Origin: Escherichia coli
GTDB lineage: Bacteria; Pseudomonadota; Gammaproteobacteria; Enterobacterales; Enterobacteriaceae
Reading direction: 5' to 3' (one strand)
NCBI RefSeq assembly: GCF_041886205.1
Contig: NZ_CP169029.1
Length of the DNA: 64,000 nt
Made by a program: the position numbers and the translations under genes. The notes below the pieces were generated by a model. That model was not told the DNA's origin. It saw only the letters and a program-made list of their open reading frames with translations, and did no database searches. Positions 1,565-24,459 of this stretch are shown here, piece by piece. Position 1 is the first letter of the stretch; each line of letters starts with the position of its first letter.

Positions 1565-2740
1565 TTAATGCAATCCAAAAACGTTCAACATGGTAGAAAG
1601 TTTGACGCCTGTTTCGCGCCACTCACCCAACGGTGACGACGCAGGCACAATCCCCGCTCCGGCAAACAGACGCACCTGATTTTCCCGCAGCTTCGCGCAG
1701 CGGATGGTCACCACCCATTCGCCGTTACCTTCGCTGTCACACCAACCCACGATGCCGCCAAACAGTTCGCGGTCGAACGGCTCCAGTTCAGCAATAATCT
1801 GGGTCGCGGCCTGATGCGGGAAACCGCTCAGCGCGGGGGTCGGATGCAGCAGACAGGCCAGAGTCAGTGCGTTTTCTTGCGAATTCGCTTTACCTTCAAA
1901 GGGAGTTGCGAGATGCCACAGCGTCGGCGTGGTAATCAATTGTGGAGAGGAGGGAACGTGTAACTCACTACTGCGTTCGCGCAGTACCTCTTTCATCGCC
2001 TGAGTCACCAGTTCATGTTCATGGCGATCTTTTTCTGACGCCAGCAGACGATTACCCGCTTCGCGATCGAGCACTTCATCCGGCTGACGACGCGCGGAAC
2101 CGGCTAACGGAATGGAGCTAAAACGCTCGCCGTCTTTACGTAGCAGCAGTTCCGGGCTGGCCCCCAGCAGCACTCCACCATCAGCCAGCGGGACATGGAA
2201 GTTGTAACTAACCGGGTTTTGCGCAATCAACCGTTCCAGCAATACGCCACTATCAATGGCGGCGTCAGTGGTGATATCAATCAACCGTGACAACACCACT
2301 TTGTCGACCTGCGGCGTGGCGGTAAGTGCGGCAGCGCGAGCAACCATCTGTTCAAACGTGGTTTTTTGCGGAATTGCCTGGCGTTCCACCACGTTCAGCG
2401 ACTGGCTGCGGGTGAAACGGCGGGCGGAAGCTTGTTTTTCCTGACGGGAGAACGACTGCCAGGATTCAGGAATATACAGCGACGAAGGCTGACGTGGATC
2501 GAAGGGAATCGCCCCGACCATCACCGGATTTTTGATACCCTGCGCTTTGGCATCGGCAAACAGCGCGGCGAGTTTTTGCTGGAAGGGACTGTCGGGCGAA
2601 TCCCCGTTCACAGCCGGTTCATCGAAGCGGGCGAAACATCCTGACGTCGTAAAACTGCGGTACGGCGACATAAAGAAAAAGCGATTGGGCGCAAGTGTTG
2701 CCATGGTCTGCTGTACTTCCTCAGCCAGTGACGTATCCAT
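1565..2740 (-). CDS. entC: isochorismate synthase EntC
   Basis: ORF translation [23 protein letters not shown]...; ATG at 2740 preceded by GGAGGA; the track ORF begins at an upstream GTG (2752). Confidence 0.93.
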
Positions 2741-2770
2741 ATCATCCTCCACAAAATGATAAAGGCTTTA

Positions 2771-2788
2771 ATAATGATTATCATTTAT
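2771..2788. promoter_or_regulatory. Fur box in the entC/fepB divergent promoter region
   Basis: ataatgattatcatttat, close to the GATAATGATAATCATTATC Fur consensus, in the 176 bp entC-fepB intergenic region. Confidence 0.8.
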
Positions 2789-2928
2789 ATTTTCGGTCGC
2801 TAACCTAAAAGCAAACGCGCACTATGTCAACTCTTGAGGTAACGCAATCTGCAACTCGGGGTTGCATCTGGTTGTGGTTACAATGAAAATGAGAAGCATT
2901 AACTTCATTAATAACAGGAAGCTGATTT

Positions 2929-3885
2929 GTGAGACTCGCCCCGCTCTACCGCAACGCCCTTCTATTAACAGGACTTTTGCTTTCAGGAATATCCGCAGTT
3001 CAGGCCGCCGACTGGCCGCGTCAGATTACTGACAGCCGTGGCACTCATACCCTGGAAAGCCAGCCGCAGCGTATTGTTTCCACCAGCGTCACCCTGACCG
3101 GCTCACTGCTGGCGATTGATGCTCCGGTGATCGCCAGCGGCGCGACCACGCCAAATAACCGCGTCGCGGATAACCAGGGCTTTTTACGCCAGTGGAGCAA
3201 GGTGGCGAAAGAACGCAAACTGCAACGGCTCTATATCGGCGAACCGAGCGCCGAAGCCGTTGCCGCGCAAATGCCGGATCTGATTTTAATTAGCGCAACC
3301 GGCGGGGATTCGGCGCTGGCACTGTATGATCAGCTTTCCACCATCGCCCCGACATTAATCATCAATTACGACGACAAAAGCTGGCAGGCGCTGTTAACGC
3401 AACTTGGCGAAATTACCGGGCATGAGAAACAAGCGGCAGAGCGGATTGCACAGTTTGATAAGCAACTGGCAGCGGCGAAAGAGCAAATCAAATTACCGCC
3501 GCAGCCGGTCACTGCCATTGTCTATACCGCCGCTGCACACAGTGCCAATCTCTGGACGCCGGAATCAGCACAAGGGCAGATGCTGGAACAACTCGGCTTT
3601 ACGCTGGCGAAGTTGCCCGCAGGGTTAAATGCCAGCCAAAGCCAGGGTAAACGCCATGACATCATTCAGCTTGGTGGGGAAAATCTGGCTGCGGGGTTAA
3701 ATGGCGAGTCACTATTCCTGTTCGCCGGTGATCAGAAAGATGCCGATGCTATTTATGCTAATCCGCTGCTCGCGCACCTGCCTGCAGTACAAAACAAGCA
3801 GGTTTATGCGCTGGGAACCGAGACGTTCCGACTGGATTACTACAGCGCCATGCAAGTGCTGGAACGACTTAAGGCGCTGTTTTAA
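2929..3885 (+). CDS. fepB: ferric enterobactin periplasmic binding protein FepB
   Basis: 318 aa [23 protein letters not shown] with signal peptide; GTG start. Confidence 0.92.
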
Positions 3886-3888
3886 GCA

Positions 3889-5139
3889 TTAACTGTCGGA
3901 CGCTGTCACCTGCGGCGGCGTCTGGCGAAAACGTCGCAACTCCACCAGCACCAGCAACAACAACACGCCGATAATCAACAAACCAAAACCGCTCGCGCTT
4001 GCAGAAGCAACCGGTGTCATCATCGCTCCCAGACCGCCTAACAGCGCCGCACCTATGGCATCGCCCGTCACGTTTTGCGCCGTCCACAAACCGTTAATCC
4101 GCCCTAACATCGCTTCCGGGGTTTGCGTTTGCAGCATTGTGTATTGCAGCAACGAGCTGACCGCACTCAACCAGCCGAACAGCGCCAGACAAACCACGCC
4201 TAAAATCCACATCGGCATCAGGCCAAACAGACCAATGGCGAGGAACGATCCCAGCGTGGAGAGCAGCATCAATAACCCTGGTCGCGCGCTATGTGCCAGC
4301 TTCCCGCTGGTTAACGCGCCAATAGCCGCACCGAGCGGGATCGCCGCATAGAGAAAACCAATCTGTGCCGCCGACATCTGCCAGTTGTCAGCCAGCGCCG
4401 GATACAGTACCCGCACCGCGCTCGCCATCGTCAATAAACCACCCAGCAACGCAATCCCTCCTACCAGCGGGCTGGCGAGCAGAAAACGAAATCCTGCCAG
4501 TAATGATTTCAACGGATGCTCGCGCGGCTGCGGTGGCGGTGGCAACGCCGGAAGGCTTAACAACGGTAGCAAGGTAATAAACGTGCCCGCCGCCGCCAGC
4601 CCGTAGTTCCAGGCTACGCCGCCGGTCGCCAGCAATAAACCGCCAATCATGGGCGAAATCACCGACCCCAGACGCACAGTCAACATGGTGATCGCCCCGG
4701 CCTGCATTAAGTTTTCACGCCCTACCAGTGCAGGTGTCGCCGCCAGTAGCGCCGTAACGCCAAGTGATGCGAAAAAACCATCCCATAAACCAAGTAAATA
4801 GATTGCCAGCAATGACGGTTCAGGCAGAAGTGCATTAAGGCACAGTCCAATGAAGCCAATGCCACAGGTGCCGCGCGCCAGCAAAATCACTTTTTTGCGT
4901 TCATAGCGATCCGCCAGCACACCGCCGACCATCAGGCCAACAAACATCGCGCCGCCGGTCAGCGTCACCGAAAGCCCCACCTGCCAGGTGGAATGTGTCA
5001 TCATCTGGATCTGCACTGGCACCGCGACGCCGAGCAAACCCAGAGAAACAATAGAGATGAAACGAGCGAGGAATACTGCGCGAAACGCCGGGTGCGTTTT
5101 CAACAGGCTGAGGTTAAGCAGCCAGGATTGTTTATTCAT
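3889..5139 (-). CDS. entS: enterobactin exporter EntS (MFS)
   Basis: 416 aa ORF, multi-pass hydrophobic, [27 protein letters not shown]. Confidence 0.92.
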
Positions 5140-5212
5140 TACAATGCCTTGCCATCAAATATTTTAAATACCTATTCTTAGGCTGCACATGCTAACATAT
5201 CCAAATAAGATC

Positions 5213-5237
5213 GATAACGATAATTAATTTCATTATC
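5213..5237. promoter_or_regulatory. Fur box(es) in the entS/fepD divergent promoter
   Basis: gataacgataattaatttcattatc, overlapping Fur-like hexamer repeats between divergent entS and fepD. Confidence 0.75.
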
Positions 5238-5249
5238 ATGGAAGTTCGT

Positions 5250-6254
5250 ATGTCTGGTTCTGTTGCCGTGACACGCGCCATTGCCGTGCCCGGATTGCTG
5301 TTATTACTGATTATCGCGACGGCATTAAGTCTGCTCATTGGGGCAAAATCACTCCCCGCTTCCGTAGTGCTGGAGGCGCTCTCCGGCACCTGCCAGAGCG
5401 CCGACTGCACCATCGTGCTTGACGCGCGACTGCCGCGCACCCTTGCCGGTTTACTGGCAGGCGGCGCGCTTGGGCTTGCCGGAGCGTTAATGCAAACCCT
5501 CACCCGAAACCCACTTGCCGACCCCGGCTTGCTTGGCGTGAACGCCGGAGCCAGCTTTGCCATTGTGCTGGGTGCGGCGCTGTTTGGTTACTCTTCCGCA
5601 CAGGAACAACTGGCGATGGCCTTCGCCGGGGCGCTGGTGGCCTCGTTGATTGTTGCCTTTACCGGCAGCCAGGGCGGCGGGCAGTTAAGTCCGGTGCGTT
5701 TAACCCTGGCGGGCGTGGCGCTGGCGGCGGTGCTGGAAGGGCTGACCAGCGGCATCGCCCTGCTTAATCCTGACGTCTACGATCAACTGCGTTTCTGGCA
5801 AGCCGGTTCGCTGGATATTCGCAATCTACATACCTTAACAGTGGTGCTGATCCCGGTGCTGATCGCCGGAGCAACTGCGCTATTACTGAGTCGCGCGCTG
5901 AACAGTTTGAGCCTCGGCAGTGACACCGCGACGGCGCTGGGCAGTCGCGTGGCGCGCACACAGTTGATTGGTCTGCTGGCGATTACCGTGCTTTGTGGTA
6001 GTGCGACGGCGGTAGTTGGCCCGATTGCCTTTATTGGCCTGATGATGCCGCATATGGCTCGCTGGCTGGTGGGTGCCGATCATCGCTGGTCGCTGCCCGT
6101 CACGCTACTCGCCACCCCTGCCCTGCTGCTGTTTGCCGATATCATCGGGCGGGTGATTGTGCCCGGCGAGTTGCGCGTTTCTGTGGTCAGTGCGTTTATT
6201 GGTGCACCGGTGCTGATTTTCCTCGTGCGACGTAAAACGCGAGGTGGTGCATGA
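5250..6254 (+). CDS. fepD: ferric enterobactin ABC permease FepD
   Basis: ORF MSGSVAVTRAIAVPGLLLLL...; chose the ATG at 5250 (334 aa) over the upstream ATG at 5238. Confidence 0.9.
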   Translation: MSGSVAVTRAIAVPGLLLLLIIATALSLLIGAKSLPASVVLEALSGTCQSADCTIVLDARLPRTLAGLLAGGALGLAGALMQTLTRNPLADPGLLGVNAGASFAIVLGAALFGYSSAQEQLAMAFAGALVASLIVAFTGSQGGGQLSPVRLTLAGVALAAVLEGLTSGIALLNPDVYDQLRFWQAGSLDIRNLHTLTVVLIPVLIAGATALLLSRALNSLSLGSDTATALGSRVARTQLIGLLAITVLCGSATAVVGPIAFIGLMMPHMARWLVGADHRWSLPVTLLATPALLLFADIIGRVIVPGELRVSVVSAFIGAPVLIFLVRRKTRGGA

Positions 6255-17223: not shown

Positions 17224-17323
17224 GCCGGATGCGGCGTGAACGCCTTATCAGGCCTACAAAAATCTTGTCAATTCAATATATTGCAGGATCACGTAGGCCT
17301 GATAAGCGTAGCGCATCAGGCAG
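17224..17323. repeat. REP/BIME element (two inverted REP units) between fepA and entD
   Basis: gccggatgcggcgtgaacgccttatcaggcctac and the inverted partner gtaggcctgataagcgtagcgcatcaggca. Confidence 0.85.
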
Positions 17324-17358: not shown

Positions 17359-17979
17359 ATGAAAACTACGCATACCACCCTCCCCTTTGCCGGAAATACG
17401 CTGCATTTTGTTGAGTTCGATCCGGCGAGTTTTTGTGAGCAGGATTTACTCTGGCTGCCACACTACGCGCAACTGCAACACGCTGGACGGAAGCGCAAAG
17501 CCGAACATTTAGCCGGACGAGTCGCCGCCGTTCATGCTTTACGAGAGTATGGTTTGAAAGGCACACCTGCAATTGGTCGTCATCGCCAGCCTGTCTGGCC
17601 TGCGGAGGTATACGGCAGTATTAGCCACTGCGGGGCTACGGCATTGGCCGTGGTATCCCGTCAACCGATTGGTATTGATATCGAAGAAATTTTTTCTGCG
17701 CAAACAGCGACCGAATTGACAGACAACATTATTACACCAGCAGAACACGAGCGACTCGCAGACTGCGGTTTAGCCTTTTCTCTGGCGCTGACACTGGCAT
17801 TTTCCGCCAAAGAGAGCGCATTTAAGGCAAGTGAGATCCAAACTGATGCAGGTTTTCTGGACTATCAGATAATTAGCTGGAATAAACAGCAGGTCATCAT
17901 TCATCGTGAGAATGAGATATTTGCTGTGCACTGGCAGATAAAAGAGAAAATAGTCATAACTCTGTGCCAACACGATTAA
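17359..17979 (+). CDS. entD: phosphopantetheinyl transferase EntD
   Basis: MKTTHTTLPFAGNTLHFVEFDP...; 206 aa from the ATG at 17359 (alternative ATG at 17350 gives MVDMKTT); the 256 aa track ORF is an extension across the REP element. Confidence 0.85.
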   Translation: MKTTHTTLPFAGNTLHFVEFDPASFCEQDLLWLPHYAQLQHAGRKRKAEHLAGRVAAVHALREYGLKGTPAIGRHRQPVWPAEVYGSISHCGATALAVVSRQPIGIDIEEIFSAQTATELTDNIITPAEHERLADCGLAFSLALTLAFSAKESAFKASEIQTDAGFLDYQIISWNKQQVIIHRENEIFAVHWQIKEKIVITLCQHD

Positions 17980-18089
17980 TTGACCACATCTGGTACGATT
18001 CGCCCGCAGCCATCACTGACCGCGGGCGAAAGTGTAAAGCAGGTGCCTTACCACCCTGACCTGACAACCGGATATGCGGGGATTACTCC

Positions 18090-19428
18090 CATAAGCGCTA
18101 ACTTAAGGGTTGAACCATCTGAAGAATGCGACGCCTCGGTGCCTCGTTAAGACGATGCCTCGCGTTCTTCAATTGCGTTTTGTAGGCTGTCAGGGATACT
18201 GTCCCACGAATGGCCACCTGTAAGCTCCAGATGACCATTTTTGTTATTCTCCACAACGAGTTAGTTCTTCTTTTCGGATCCGGCACTTCTGGGGGGGAAA
18301 TCCAGCGATGGCTGGATTATGTCGTCAATTAAAAATGCGGCGAGTAGATTAGCAAATATCCACGCTTTCGCGAGTTCAGGTTCCTTTGCACGCAAAGCAT
18401 CCAGGTGCAGCAAACTTTTGAGCCGCTTAAAAGCCAGTTCAATTTGCCATCGCAGACGGTAACAATCAGCCACTTGCTCTGCTGAATATTCATCTTCCGG
18501 TAATGATGTTAGCAATAGCACATGGCCCGCTGCTTCCAGCGTTTCCGCCTGAACTACTCGTCCTTTTCGACGATTCTCGCTGAGCAGTCGGGTTTTACTG
18601 ATTAATGCTTTTTCGGGAGGAAGTGATACGGCAATGAGACGTGCCGGAAAGGGAGCTCCGGCTTTTTTATTACCTGAATTGCCTATCATTACAGTGGTTT
18701 CACCGTTCTTACCGCAATCCAGCCCGCGCAGAAAACCCATCATGTCAAAGCGCATTCCTTCTGCAGTTAACCAGCGCAATCCTCGCCAGTGAACCCGGAC
18801 GATATAATCAGCTTCTCCAAAAGCAAGTGAGCGGATACATTCGGGACGCGAACCGAATCCCCGGTCAGCAATGCGTATCTCGTCTGCCGTTTGCGCAAAT
18901 CGGTCCAGCCGTTCAGCGTCTCTGCTGTCGGTTAGCTCAAAATCAGTGAACTGACAGGTATGAGGATCATATCCCATATGTAGTCGCCATTCAGCGCTGC
19001 CGCCCCCGGGCGCACTGATTGCTGTTCCATCGACAAGACGCAATCTCTTTCCGCTTGTACAACCCGTAACTGCGGCGCGTACAGCAAGTGTTTGTGCGGC
19101 AAGTATGCCAAACCAGTCGGCGGCATTCCGCAGCCGCTTCAGGAGAGCCACGTCAGATAATGTTGCAACGTCATGGAGCTGAGCCCATGCAGTGACTTCA
19201 CGTAATGACATCCCCCCGGGGCCGTAAGCCAGCCCCAGACGTAGCAGAGTTGCAGCATCACGAATTTCGCGGCGGCGGGTTAGAGCCCCGGCATTACGTG
19301 CCGAAGTATCCAGTTCTTCGGGCTTACCAATATGGGCCAGAATTGCTGACCAGTTATCGTGAGAGTAATTCATCGGCACGTTAAATCATATCAGGCGTAA
19401 TACCACAACCCTTAAGTTAGCGCTTATG
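18090..19428 (-). mobile_element. IS186 (IS4 family), copy 1, complete; transposase on the minus strand
   Basis: Terminal inverted repeats cataagcgctaacttaagggttg (18090-18112) and caacccttaagttagcgcttatg (19406-19428); flanked by direct repeats ggattactcc (18080-18089 and 19429-19438); boundaries accurate to about 1 bp. Confidence 0.92.
18261..19373 (-). CDS. insL: IS186 transposase
   Basis: ORF MNYSHDNWSAILAHIGKPEELDTSARNAG...; 370 aa from the internal Met, the track ORF starts two codons earlier at 19379. Confidence 0.93.
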   Translation of the reverse strand: MNYSHDNWSAILAHIGKPEELDTSARNAGALTRRREIRDAATLLRLGLAYGPGGMSLREVTAWAQLHDVATLSDVALLKRLRNAADWFGILAAQTLAVRAAVTGCTSGKRLRLVDGTAISAPGGGSAEWRLHMGYDPHTCQFTDFELTDSRDAERLDRFAQTADEIRIADRGFGSRPECIRSLAFGEADYIVRVHWRGLRWLTAEGMRFDMMGFLRGLDCGKNGETTVMIGNSGNKKAGAPFPARLIAVSLPPEKALISKTRLLSENRRKGRVVQAETLEAAGHVLLLTSLPEDEYSAEQVADCYRLRWQIELAFKRLKSLLHLDALRAKEPELAKAWIFANLLAAFLIDDIIQPSLDFPPRSAGSEKKN

Positions 19429-19850
19429 GGATTACTCCCCGCACAGCGGCTACTTCTTCGGTTCGTAAGCGAGAACAGCCTTAAACTCAATATTACGTTC
19501 CTTTACCGTAAACTCACACAACGAGTCTCCGACCAGAAGCGTAAATCCCAGCACCGTCAAACACAGCACTATGACTGCCACAAGGGCATATTTCGTCAGC
19601 ATGTTTATATTGCCTCCATGCGAAGAAGGGACTACCATCCGAGTTGTTGAGGTTCGGAGTGGCAGCCCCAGGATTGATAGAAATTTCTCCTGGGGCTTCA
19701 TCTTTCCAGACCTCAGAGTTAACCTGAAACCGGAAAGCTTCAGGCACCCGCCGTTATCTTACCCTTCCTTAGCAAAATAGCTGTTTATTTATACAGTGAG
19801 TCCTGTTTCGGACTTCTGTCAGCAAAACTCATCATTGCTCTTAAAACGAA
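19429..19850 (-). other. hok/sok-type type I toxin-antitoxin module, copy A (hokE coding region plus upstream mok/sok leader); its 3' UTR is separated by IS186 copy 1
   Basis: Contains the hokE ORF with GGAGG Shine-Dalgarno, an in-frame upstream ORF (19450-19701) and an overlapping out-of-frame ORF (19514-19747) as mok candidates; the 3' hairpin segment now lies at 18000-18089. Confidence 0.7.
19450..19602 (-). CDS. hokE: Hok-family membrane toxin HokE, copy A
   Basis: 50 aa [50 protein letters not shown]; single transmembrane helix typical of Hok/Gef; stop codon 21 bp from the IS186 end. Confidence 0.9.
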
Positions 19851-19941
19851 ATCGCCCGCAGCCATCACTGACCGCGGGCGAAAGTGTAAAGCAGGTGCCT
19901 TACCATCCTGACCTGACAACCGGATATGCGGGGATTGCTCC

Positions 19942-21280
19942 CATAAGCGCTAACTTAAGGGTTGTGGTATTACGCCTGATATGATTTAACGTGCCGATGA
20001 ATTACTCTCACGATAACTGGTCAGCAATTCTGGCCCATATTGGTAAGCCCGAAGAACTGGATACTTCGGCACGTAATGCCGGGGCTCTAACCCGCCGCCG
20101 CGAAATTCGTGATGCTGCAACTCTGCTACGTCTGGGGCTGGCTTACGGCCCCGGGGGGATGTCATTACGTGAAGTCACTGCATGGGCTCAGCTCCATGAC
20201 GTTGCAACATTATCTGACGTGGCTCTCCTGAAGCGGCTGCGGAATGCCGCCGACTGGTTTGGCATACTTGCCGCACAAACACTTGCTGTACGCGCCGCAG
20301 TTACGGGTTGTACAAGCGGAAAGAGATTGCGTCTTGTCGATGGAACAGCAATCAGTGCGCCCGGGGGCGGCAGCGCTGAATGGCGACTACATATGGGATA
20401 TGATCCTCATACCTGTCAGTTCACTGATTTTGAGCTAACCGACAGCAGAGACGCTGAACGGCTGGACCGATTTGCGCAAACGGCAGACGAGATACGCATT
20501 GCTGACCGGGGATTCGGTTCGCGTCCCGAATGTATCCGCTCACTTGCTTTTGGAGAAGCTGATTATATCGTCCGGGTTCACTGGCGAGGATTGCGCTGGT
20601 TAACTGCAGAAGGAATGCGCTTTGACATGATGGGTTTTCTGCGCGGGCTGGATTGCGGTAAGAACGGTGAAACCACTGTAATGATAGGCAATTCAGGTAA
20701 TAAAAAAGCCGGAGCTCCCTTTCCGGCACGTCTCATTGCCGTATCACTTCCTCCCGAAAAAGCATTAATCAGTAAAACCCGACTGCTCAGCGAGAATCGT
20801 CGAAAAGGACGAGTAGTTCAGGCGGAAACGCTGGAAGCAGCGGGCCATGTGCTATTGCTAACATCATTACCGGAAGATGAATATTCAGCAGAGCAAGTGG
20901 CTGATTGTTACCGTCTGCGATGGCAAATTGAACTGGCTTTTAAGCGGCTCAAAAGTTTGCTGCACCTGGATGCTTTGCGTGCAAAGGAACCTGAACTCGC
21001 GAAAGCGTGGATATTTGCTAATCTACTCGCCGCATTTTTAATTGACGACATAATCCAGCCATCGCTGGATTTCCCCCCCAGAAGTGCCGGATCCGAAAAG
21101 AAGAACTAACTCGTTGTGGAGAATAACAAAAATGGTCATCTGGAGCTTACAGGTGGCCATTCGTGGGACAGTATCCCTGACAGCCTACAAAACGCAATTG
21201 AAGAACGCGAGGCATCGTCTTAACGAGGCACCGAGGCGTCGCATTCTTCAGATGGTTCAACCCTTAAGTTAGCGCTTATG
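19942..21280 (+). mobile_element. IS186, copy 2, complete; inverted relative to copy 1
   Basis: Same 23 bp terminal inverted repeats at 19942-19964 and 21258-21280; flanked by direct repeats ggattgctcc (19932-19941 and 21281-21290); transposase protein identical to copy 1. Confidence 0.92.
19997..21109 (+). CDS. insL: IS186 transposase
   Basis: 370 aa, identical in protein sequence to the copy-1 transposase. Confidence 0.93.
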   Translation: MNYSHDNWSAILAHIGKPEELDTSARNAGALTRRREIRDAATLLRLGLAYGPGGMSLREVTAWAQLHDVATLSDVALLKRLRNAADWFGILAAQTLAVRAAVTGCTSGKRLRLVDGTAISAPGGGSAEWRLHMGYDPHTCQFTDFELTDSRDAERLDRFAQTADEIRIADRGFGSRPECIRSLAFGEADYIVRVHWRGLRWLTAEGMRFDMMGFLRGLDCGKNGETTVMIGNSGNKKAGAPFPARLIAVSLPPEKALISKTRLLSENRRKGRVVQAETLEAAGHVLLLTSLPEDEYSAEQVADCYRLRWQIELAFKRLKSLLHLDALRAKEPELAKAWIFANLLAAFLIDDIIQPSLDFPPRSAGSEKKN

Positions 21281-21301
21281 GGATTGCTCCCCGCACAACG
21301 G

Positions 21302-21454
21302 CTACTTCTTCGGTTCGTAAGCGAGAACAGCCTTAAACTCAATATTACGTTCCTTCACCGTAAACTCACACAGCGAGTCGCCGACCAGAAGCGTAAATCC
21401 CAGCACCGTTAAACACAGTACTATGACTGCCGCAAGGGCATATTTCGTCAGCAT
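21302..21454 (-). CDS. hokE: Hok-family toxin HokE, copy B (V8A variant)
   Basis: [50 protein letters not shown]; 6 nucleotide differences from copy A, one non-synonymous; IS186 copy 2 lies 21 bp after the stop and IS150 71 bp before the ATG. Confidence 0.88.
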
Positions 21455-21551
21455 GTTTATATTGCCTCCATGCGAAGAAGGGACTACCATCCAAATTGTT
21501 CAGGTTTGGGTAGGTAGCCCTAGGGTGTACTGACCCCAAAAAGTTGGACAG

Positions 21552-22403
21552 TTAAACACGAGGCATATAGGTCTGATTCCGATATTCAATTGGAGTCAGA
21601 CCTTTTAATTTCAGGCTAATTCTTCTGCTGTTGTAGTATTCAATATATTCCGTAACAGCATCCTTCAGTTCGCTTATATTACTGAACTCATCAAGATAAA
21701 AACACTCCGACTTTAAGGTTCCAAAGAAACACTCCACCACAGCATTATCCAGACAATTGCCTTTTCTGGACATGCTTTGTTTAATACCATGTTCTTTAAG
21801 GATATTTTGATATCTTCTCATACGATACTGCCATCCCTGGTCAGAGTGCAGAACAGGATGCTCGTGAGGATTAAGCTTTTTGAATGCCTGATCGAGCATA
21901 TTCTCAACCATGTTCATCACTGGTCTTTCCGAAAGGCTGTAAGAAATAACTTCATTGTTGAAGAGATCTATTACTGGAGACAAATACAGCTTGCGCCCAT
22001 TGACTGCAAATTCAGTAACATCGGTAACCCACTTCTCGTTTGGCCGCGTAGCCTTGAAATCTCTTTGGAGAACATTGGGGGCGGTTTGCCCTACCTCTCT
22101 TCTGTAAGAGCGGTATCGCTTGACCTTAATCGCTGCCTTAAGTGAGAGGGTTCCCATCAGGCGCTGAACAGCTTTATGGTTAATCTGTTTCCCTTCTCGA
22201 TGAAGAGACAGCGTTACCCTACGGTATCCGTATCGGCCTCTATTCTCATGATAAATCTCACCAATACGCTTTTTAACGCCCGCATACTTGTCAGGCTTGC
22301 TGAGAGCCTTTAGATGGTAATAAAACGTACTGCGCGGTATCTCCGCAGCCCTGAGAAGCTCATCAAGAGGATAAAACTGCCTTAGCTCGTTGAGTACTTT
22401 CAC
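21552..22403 (-). CDS. insK: IS150 OrfB (transposase catalytic part, DDE)
   Basis: 283 aa [32 protein letters not shown]... Confidence 0.92.
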
Positions 22404-22921
22404 TTTTTCGTGGGATGAGCTAAGGCTTTCAGCTTTTTTAGATACACAAGCCGCGTTTCAAGAAATCGAACTTGCCTTTCAAGATCCTCAATGCGTCGGT
22501 CTTTTGACAGCTCCAATGCTGATGCCGCTTTTTCTGGATCAACTGATATTGCAATGTTTCTTTTGGTGCCAATCTTGAGCGCGCGTAAACCAGCTTCTCC
22601 GCGATCTTCATAAACCTTCAGCCACCTGGCTACAGAACCACTACCAGCAAGCATAAAGTGAGCAGCAGCCTGATTAAGGGACATGTGCTGCTCGATCACA
22701 GCTTTCACGACCTTAATACGCAACTCTGGATCAGCACTAACGCCTTTAGGTTTGGGAATTAAACCTTTTTCTCCATGTTTTTCATAGAGGGCAACCCATG
22801 TCCTGACCTGGGTTCGGGGGACACCAAAACGTGCCGAGATGATCCTGTAACCATCATCAGTTGTGAAGTAGTGATTCACGACTTCAAGGCGCTTTTCAAA
22901 AGGGTATTTTGGCTTTGACAT
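22400..22921 (-). CDS. insJ: IS150 OrfA (helix-turn-helix DNA-binding part)
   Basis: 173 aa MSKPKYPFEKRLEVVNHYFTTDDGYRIISARFGVPRTQVRTW. Confidence 0.92.
   Translation of the reverse strand: MSKPKYPFEKRLEVVNHYFTTDDGYRIISARFGVPRTQVRTWVALYEKHGEKGLIPKPKGVSADPELRIKVVKAVIEQHMSLNQAAAHFMLAGSGSVARWLKVYEDRGEAGLRALKIGTKRNIAISVDPEKAASALELSKDRRIEDLERQVRFLETRLVYLKKLKALAHPTKK
22433..22439 (-). other. IS150 programmed -1 ribosomal frameshift heptamer A-AAA-AAG
   Basis: Minus-strand AAAAAAG lies in the orfA zero frame as CTA-AAA-AAG, 33 nt upstream of the orfA stop, where the orfB frame overlaps. Confidence 0.75.
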
Positions 22922-23331
22922 ATTAGGGGCTATTCCATTTCATCGTCCAACAAAATGGGTGCAGTACAGGGTTGATAGAAATATCTCCTGGGGCTTCATC
23001 TTTCCAGACCTCAGAGTAAACCTGAAACCGGAAAGCTTCAGGCACCCGCCGTTATCTTACCCTTCCTCAACAAAATAGCTGTTTATTTATACAGTAAATC
23101 CTGTTTCGGACTTCTCACTCCTCATTTAATCAACTGAAGCTGAACCCGTTTTTTCTGCATGCCTCAATCGTCAAAATTCTTCGCCGCCAGCCAGCTAAGA
23201 CGCAACTGGTCACATTGCAAAAGTAGCCAAATTACTTCAGTCACCATCACCAAAAAAAAGAAACATTCCAGAACTTCCGCATCTCGCCCAGCCGCTCCCA
23301 CTTCTATACTGAATGGAAAACGCCAACATAA

Positions 23332-24459
<1,128 letters not shown>

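Follow-up and report, generated by a model that had tools for sequence, protein, structure and literature searches.

Between entD and ybdK, in the ent/fep-cus segment of the Escherichia coli chromosome, a stretch of 64,000 nucleotides (nt) from contig NZ_CP169029.1 (assembly GCF_041886205.1; the whole stretch is called the window here) carries two tandem modules of the toxin-antitoxin locus hokE, each interrupted by a copy of the insertion sequence (IS) IS186. Very probably each hokE module was separately hit by a consensus IS186 at a GGGG-N6-CCCC hairpin, whereby its own diverged 10 bp were duplicated, and both modules were likely crippled. Repeat analysis of the window revealed a tandem structure with a period of 1,852 bp and, in addition, an inverted repeat of 1,369 nt. 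The locus is made up of the following features (CDS, coding sequence; ORF, open reading frame; UTR, untranslated region):

17359-17979 (plus), entD, and 23341-24459 (plus), ybdK: borders of the host interval
18000-18089 (minus), module 1 3′ arm, the distal 3′ UTR of the hokE1 mRNA: direct repeat of 19852-19941 with 2 differences; contains a predicted fold-back (fbi) element at about 18038-18048, a terminal hairpin and the left half of the target hairpin
18080-18089, left target-site duplication of IS186 copy 1, GGATTACTCC
18090-19428 (minus), IS186 copy 1, 1,339 bp: transposase ORF at 18261-19373 (minus)
19429-19438, right target-site duplication of IS186 copy 1, GGATTACTCC
19439-19851 (minus), module 1 body: hokE1 CDS at 19450-19602, sok / hok-leader region at 19594-19749, promoter region
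19852-19941 (minus), module 2 3′ arm: predicted fbi element and terminal hairpin; left duplication GGATTGCTCC at 19932-19941
19942-21280 (plus), IS186 copy 2, 1,339 bp: transposase ORF at 19997-21109 (plus)
21281-21525 (minus), module 2 proximal body: right duplication GGATTGCTCC at 21281-21290, hokE2 CDS at 21302-21454, truncated leader
21526-22968 (minus), IS150, 1,443 bp, with a 3-bp duplication GGG: lies in the module 2 sok / hok-leader region
22969-23117 (minus), distal, promoter-side part of module 2: homologous to 19669-19817 of module 1

IS186 copy 1 now severs hokE1 from the 3′ arm of its module, and IS150 cuts hokE2 off from its own promoter and its antitoxin gene. The modules are assigned to hokE by their position, by the RefSeq names in relatives and by the Rfam match of sok. 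Both hokE1 and hokE2 are ORFs of 50 codons on the minus strand, with V8A in hokE2 relative to hokE1. The Hok peptides scored 49 bits with the NCBIfam HokA model and 40 bits with the Hok-family model (E-values 4e-13 and 3e-10), i.e. below the curated cut-offs of 89 and 73 bits; RefSeq names both ORFs of the corresponding locus HokE in strain MB53 and in other genomes. The 513-bp inter-IS segment of MB53 appears to be identical to that of the window, judging from a 1,113-bp probe that was 99.7% identical with about three mismatches, which arise because MB53 carries private IS186 substitutions. The sok region of module 1 scored 80.2 bits with Rfam RF01794 (gathering score 59), and the match in module 2 is split by IS150 into two parts, at 21446-21536 (23.7 bits) and 22892-23047 (63.7 bits).

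The two inserted elements are IS186 by length, terminal repeats, transposase model, identity with the reference and target. Copy 1 and copy 2 are exact reverse complements of each other, with 0 differences over 1,339 bp in both string and BLAST checks, and the 23-bp terminal repeat CATAAGCGCTAACTTAAGGGTTG was present at all four IS186 ends. The single transposase, a DDE enzyme of the InsL type, scored 133.3 bits with the NCBIfam model NF033592 (IS4 family; cut-off 115). Both copies showed 0 differences from K-12 IS186A and IS186B over 1,339 bp, and copies in several other strains were also identical. The published length, in sources that include PMC3562002, is 1,338 bp; the gap of 1 nt arises because the placement of the IS ends is ambiguous. 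With IS ends C...G beside a G/C-rich target, three lengths of the repeat are defensible, namely a 6-bp core (ATTACT), 10 bp and 12 bp, and this ambiguity fits the variable duplication length of IS186 that is named in the title of a reference quoted by PMC3562002.

In both modules exactly 21 nt separate the hokE stop codon from the IS end, as read directly from the CDS and IS ends. Copy 1 is preceded by ...gcggGGATTACTCC and followed by GGATTACTCCccgc (repeats at 18080-18089 and 19429-19438), and copy 2 is preceded by ...gcggGGATTGCTCC and followed by GGATTGCTCCccgc (19932-19941 and 21281-21290). Exact matching of the four junctions showed a private, perfect 10-bp repeat at each copy. The repeats of the two copies differ by A/G; this base agrees on both flanks of each copy, and it lies inside the repeat whichever repeat length is chosen. 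These results bear out the earlier note on this DNA, which had described IS186 exactly 21 bp past each hokE stop codon, private perfect repeats with an A/G difference, and opposite orientation of the two copies at the same position, the last of which was likewise shown by exact matching. A collapsed or mis-joined IS repeat in the assembly might mimic such an anatomy, IS copies being a classic source of misassembly; nothing specific to this locus speaks for it, and with unique flanks and perfect repeats at all four junctions, and the same double-hit architecture contiguous in about 33 independent complete genomes deposited, an artefact has practically no chance of being the explanation.

When each IS was excised in silico together with one repeat copy, the sequences GGGGATTACTCCCC (copy 1) and GGGGATTGCTCCCC (copy 2) were given back. 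Both reconstructed targets have the form GGGG-N6-CCCC which, as the earlier note had said, is the documented preference of IS186 (PMC5009759). Read in the sense of the hok mRNA, the target is UGUGCGGGGA-GUAA-UCCCCGCAUA. It lies in the 3′ UTR, some 12-30 nt beyond the stop codon of each hokE, and is predicted to fold into a 10-bp GC-rich stem closed by a GNRA tetraloop. The runs of G and C in this stem appear on the DNA as GGGG-N6-CCCC. The A/G allele corresponds to a GUAA loop in module 1 and a GCAA loop in module 2; both are GNRA loops and both hairpins are predicted at -13.7 kcal/mol. This suggests that the structure of the predicted hok 3′ UTR hairpin is under constraint. No intact GGGG-N6-CCCC or GGGG-N7-CCCC site was found in the 64-kb window, with chance expectations of 0.9 and 0.6, respectively, because both such sites of the window are split by IS186; i.e. 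there are only two, and both are occupied.

Insertions of IS186 in mutation-accumulation lines fall almost exclusively on GGGG(N6/N7)CCCC. K-12 has just 19 N6 and 35 N7 sites of this kind; some were hit many times without selection, and both orientations were used, the motif being palindromic (Lee et al. 2016, PMC5009759). At the lon promoter a single IS186 site is hit in either orientation, according to Lyons et al. 2011 (PMC3045373), which cites SaiSree et al. 2001. The IS4-family transposase of IS186 would accordingly prefer the rare palindromic GGGG-N6-CCCC in the hairpin of each hokE module, and the palindrome would leave the orientation arbitrary; in the window, the copies ended up inverted.

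The same hairpin position is occupied elsewhere. In K-12 hokE, IS186 lies at the same position with an A/A repeat, GGATTACTCC, and in K-12 hokC it lies at the same hairpin position, GGGGATCACTCCCC, in the opposite orientation relative to hok. In the Klebsiella pneumoniae plasmid pKPN-262, an IS186 with the same transposase protein follows a plasmid Hok/Gef gene and occupies the equivalent GC hairpin, GGGGGCTTCCCCCC, with the duplication GGGCTTCCCC (762-2100 of the locus); about 20 Klebsiella/Raoultella plasmids in PLSDB gave the same partial match as pKPN-262. The double hit in the window is a straightforward consequence of a known target preference meeting a conserved structural element.

After removal of all IS, the two modules aligned without gaps and differed at 31 of 478 positions (6.5%). 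At this rate about 87 differences would be expected between the IS186 copies, and 0 in 1,339 bp were seen. The duplication junction, probed with window positions 19700-19941, was unbroken in 2,394 of the 5,426 complete E. coli genomes that made up the population survey, often in an IS-free state; in O157:H7 strain 86-24, for example, both modules are present and both sites are without IS. The tandem hokE pair long predates the IS insertions. As the duplication junction is widespread and IS-free pairs exist, duplication of an IS-bearing module is ruled out as the origin of the pair.

The flanks of the locus are 100% identical in the window and in strains MB53, VE-T9, wlxctx60 and PT62 (791 bp on the entD side and 1,491 bp on the ybdK side), whereas other lineages differ in these flanks by 6-8% (entD side) and 2-4% (ybdK side). 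On this shared haplotype, PT62 retains the ancestral empty state: the 'A' site of its module-1-type hokE is empty and matches the empty site reconstructed for the window at all of 190 bp. Module 2 of PT62 is replaced or interrupted by an ISL3-family element (ISKox3), which lies beside the intact, IS186-free module 1 (4973-6193 of the PT62 locus). MB53 has the arrangement of the window without IS150, i.e. a minus IS186 with A/A repeats and a plus IS186 with G/G repeats. VE-T9 (plus) and wlxctx60 (minus) have IS150, a single module and one IS186 whose two flanks disagree (A to the left, G to the right). Compared variant by variant, both consist of the left arm of window unit 1, one IS186 and the right arm of unit 2, and both therefore descend from the two-IS state by a deletion of exactly 1,852 bp, rather than being ancestral to it. 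In-place flipping of IS186 was considered for VE-T9 and wlxctx60 and rejected as the simplest reading, the arms matching those of deletion derivatives. The exchange points of these deletions are limited to 27-28 bp, comprising the IS terminal repeat and 4-5 bp of the duplication. Such confinement points to slippage between these short repeats or to repair once IS186 had been excised, with annealing of the module repeats on either side, and not to ordinary crossing-over in the longer arms. Loci with one module, IS186 and IS150 were found in 227 genomes with a 7-kb population query. The most parsimonious order of events is an empty pair, two IS186 hits, IS150 (in the window) and then one-unit deletions.

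These relatives also bear on a history with only one transposition, in which a single IS186 insertion was followed by tandem duplication of the module, an in-place flip and then conversion or parallel mutation of the flanks to A and G. The two units do share the exact 1,852-bp period, duplication is the origin reported for tandem hok 'islets' (bioRxiv 10.1101/2025.08.07.668861), and single-module relatives carry IS186 in either orientation between the same flanks. The single-module relatives with mismatched flanks are, however, deletion derivatives of the two-IS state and not ancestors; IS-free tandem pairs are found in many genomes, which makes the duplication older than the IS; and identical IS copies stand beside modules that have diverged by 6.5%. 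Such a history would also need at least three extra events, including an in-place inversion of no known mechanism and two coordinated changes of the flanks. The IS-free tandem pairs and the empty module-1 site of PT62 effectively refute it, and we consider it highly improbable. The earlier note had argued for two separate transpositions and against duplication of an IS-bearing module, and this view is upheld by the IS-free pairs, by the divergence of 6.5% against 0 and by the empty site of PT62; no finding contradicts two insertion events.

Occupancy of the hokE 3′ sites was surveyed with junction probes, for which E-value cut-offs were set so that only junction-crossing alignments were reported; the 7-kb query could not separate the architectures. 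A probe for the reconstructed empty site detected 5,893 such sites, spread over 3,521 genomes (median 2 per genome). The junction of the left arm to IS186(minus) was found in 1,717 genomes (1,769 places) and that to IS186(plus) in 284 genomes (315 places). Among two-module genomes, the module-2 site carried IS186(plus) in 69 and IS186(minus) in 101. Hits are thus recurrent in the population: the survey of occupied and empty hokE 3′ sites that the earlier note had suggested found both states, with insertions at both modules and in both orientations.

The 1,113-bp probe for the -/+ architecture of the window was matched at 80% coverage or more in 39 genomes (28 single contiguous matches, 5 in two pieces, 5 in three pieces and 1 with another pattern). 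Coverage counts with long probes were made for -/+ only, since a single IS would satisfy the -/- and +/+ probes. The -/+ count is itself partly confounded, as non-collinear pieces were joined; one two-piece and one three-piece example were inspected. The two-piece match, LZSFT34, is an ordinary -/+ locus. The three-piece match, SCPM-O-B-9427 (2016-5206 of its locus), has an inverted 513-bp inter-IS segment, derived from a +/- ancestor, with hokE1 flipped, and its flanks are mismatched and reverse-complemented, with ggattgctcc before and ggagcaatcc after the IS. This is what a real inversion between two copies leaves behind. In the window the flanks match, and therefore no net inversion has taken place; the locus is also collinear with IS-free genomes. 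The claim that recombination between the copies had not rearranged it is thereby sustained.

Other combinations could also be observed. ST131 shows -/- with G/G and A/A repeats, AL.H8 shows +/+, and a second entD haplotype, 6% diverged (QA-1986 83, ES7), is -/+ and has G/G repeats round either copy. The alleles are swapped in O157:H7 and ST131, where module 1 has G and module 2 has A. The distinct combinations of site, orientation and repeat allele amount to at least five insertion events in the species; the true number could be much larger or only modestly so, as the genomes counted are not phylogenetically independent. In strain STS73-1-E, entD-IS186-hokE1-IS186 is joined straight to hyfB and not to hokE2/ybdK, an IS186-associated large rearrangement. 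In MB53, both hokE-associated IS186 copies share private substitutions at positions 26 and 804, off the consensus, and in AL.H8 both share one at position 692. These shared private variants imply gene conversion between neighbours, or that one copy seeded the other.

Two transpositions may have happened and still have reached this strain by another path, either imported by homologous recombination or with the second copy arriving by a local hop from the first. The same -/+ architecture is found on the second, 6%-diverged entD haplotype (QA-1986 83, ES7, LZSFT34), the reversed allele assignment in O157:H7 and ST131 amounts to shuffling between modules or lineages, and the paired copies in MB53 and AL.H8 with their private variants would fit a local hop. 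On the other side, the module-1 repeats are G/G in QA-1986 83 and ES7 and A/A in the window, so that the module-1 insertions on the two haplotypes are distinct events, and no local-hopping bias of IS186 was seen by Lee et al. (PMC5009759). Import or a local hop is a possibility to be taken seriously, if not the favoured one; either would alter only where and when the transpositions happened, and not that there were two.

The convergence might also stem mainly from selection to switch off hokE, an intact chromosomal hok being costly, rather than from target preference. Occupancy is very high, with junctions in about 1,717 + 284 genomes; IS150 occupies an identical position in module 2 on two haplotypes; hokC and hokE of K-12 are both IS-interrupted; and Lee et al. 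(PMC5009759) themselves ask whether retained IS186 target sites are selected. Yet 5,893 empty sites persist, chromosomal hok loci are reported to be inactive for post-segregational killing even when intact, and target bias alone suffices, given repeated hits without selection in mutation-accumulation lines (PMC5009759). Selection as the main cause is therefore regarded as rather unlikely. The order and timing of the two hits, and whether target bias acted alone or with selection to give the high occupancy, are points on which we infer rather than observe.

Several considerations weigh against our reading of two separate, crippling insertions in this locus. IS186 is near-invariant across E. coli, so that 0 differences cannot date the insertions or exclude gene conversion. 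An even number of inversions, or conversion between identical copies, would leave no trace. The shared variants in MB53 and AL.H8 mean that local copy-to-copy transfer occurs, and one copy may have seeded the other. The insertions may have taken place in an ancestor, or have been imported by recombination, rather than in this strain, and the genome counts are not phylogenetically independent events. Finally, the functional effect would follow from RNA structure prediction and from analogy with hokC and the hok of R1.

In hok mRNAs, pairing between tac and fbi keeps the message inert and stable. In an IS-free reconstruction of the hokE1 mRNA, whose 5′ end was guessed from the Rfam match, nt 1-11 are predicted to pair with nt 356-366 (tac/fbi). 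The IS186 insertion point corresponds to nt 314 of this mRNA, so that fbi now lies 1.34 kb away from the coding part. Each IS186 insertion would interrupt the hok transcript past its coding region and before the 3′ fold-back element. Behind hokC (gef), IS186 disrupts fbi and 3′ processing; the transcript ends within the IS and antisense control is kept (PMC3562002). Module 1 keeps an intact sok region, while the sok/leader region of module 2 is split by IS150, which would further decapitate this module. By this prediction and analogy, both hokE modules would be expected to be disabled as stable-mRNA killer modules.

The nearest known counterparts are IS186B at hokE and IS186A at hokC (gef) of K-12 (NC_000913.3), which have the same element, stop-codon distance, hairpin target and expected loss of fbi; K-12 hokE even shares the GGATTACTCC repeat and the minus orientation with window copy 1. 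K-12 has a single hokE module, whereas in the window both tandem members are occupied 1.85 kb apart, and the copies form a 1.34-kb inverted repeat round 513 bp. Pedersen and Gerdes reportedly placed IS186 21-22 nt behind hokE and hokC of K-12 in 1999, and the K-12 records agree. Since K-12 hokE and hokC already carry IS186 at this position, the case is less novel than the earlier note implied. The motif and the K-12 insertions being known, only the double hit in a tandem pair is new, and no published description of a double IS186 hit in a tandem hokE pair was found in the literature. The IS186 hot spots at the lon promoter, fimA, menC and yeaR (PMC5009759, PMC3045373) likewise show the same motif, recurrence at one position, both orientations and a duplication made of the core and part of the G/C runs. 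These were defined in the laboratory, whereas the evidence from the window comprises natural population data at a structured RNA of a toxin-antitoxin locus.

The locus is a clean natural replicate of a known rule, in which a hairpin present in two diverged copies at a distance of 1.85 kb was hit each time at one and the same nucleotide, and such hits are repeated in the population at both modules and in both orientations. Current understanding is not overturned; the case is real but ordinary. It accounts for the frequent annotation of hokE beside an 'IS421-family' transposase, and a structural RNA element can evidently double as an IS target. Its natural consequences are visible as exact one-unit deletions, an inter-IS inversion and mobilisation of hokE as a compound transposon.

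This last consequence was observed in strain CUPS TF 6/1_01, where a 3,191-bp unit, consisting of the 513-bp hokE1 body plus module-2 3′ arm between two IS186 in direct orientation, is present at two new sites, with inner flanks that are those of the hokE locus. One unit lies on the 277-kb conjugative plasmid NZ_CP180633.1 (2462-5652 of the extracted locus), in the target GGGGGATGAACCCCC and with the new 10-bp duplication GGATGAACCC. The other lies in chromosomal yeaR (NZ_CP180632.1; 1462-4652 of the extracted locus), with the new 10-bp duplication GGGTTTACCC. Both landing sites are of the G-run/C-run type, and the unit itself derives from a tandem hokE locus with double occupancy. As the two transposed units show, double occupancy can give rise to a compound transposon by which hokE/sokE reaches other IS186 targets. 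Matches H285-H293 to 'plasmids' in PLSDB were also considered as evidence of mobilisation and were rejected, being mostly chromosome-derived or mislabelled (e.g. peccDNA113).

In the window, two intact IS186 bracket the segment at its site of origin, and movement of the unit was seen only for the direct-repeat version of CUPS TF 6/1_01. As in the compound transposons Tn10 and Tn5, two intact IS4-family elements are inverted round a short unique segment; unlike in Tn10 and Tn5, the unit is still at its birthplace, with no evidence of movement in the window, and its cargo is a disabled toxin module and not a selectable gene. A tentative view, which we hold to be possible and not more, is that doubly occupied hokE behaves as a compound transposon homing to GGGG-N6-CCCC sites, including those on conjugative plasmids, that the version in the window is Tn10-like and transposition-competent, and that the hok hairpin with its GC stem and GNRA loop (hokC, both hokE, Klebsiella plasmid hok) may serve as a family-wide landing pad of IS186, coupling the evolution of hok and of the IS.

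Further observations concern IS150 and the surroundings of the locus. The OrfB of IS150 scored 347 bits with the NCBIfam IS3-family model. On two haplotypes that are 6% apart in entD, IS150 is found at the same nucleotide of module 2, its orientation and its GGG duplication also being shared, and the IS150 copies on these two haplotypes differ at 11 of 1,443 nt. The shared position is either a second hot spot that was hit twice or an old insertion that was moved by recombination. The fepA-entD spacer contains REP-like palindromes at 17259-17300 (Rfam ES036; their 39.8 bits barely exceed the gathering score). With the Rfam tRNA model, a tRNA was detected at 44457-44530 (minus), and its candidate counterpart is the tRNA-Arg annotated in MB53 in the envY-fimZ interval.

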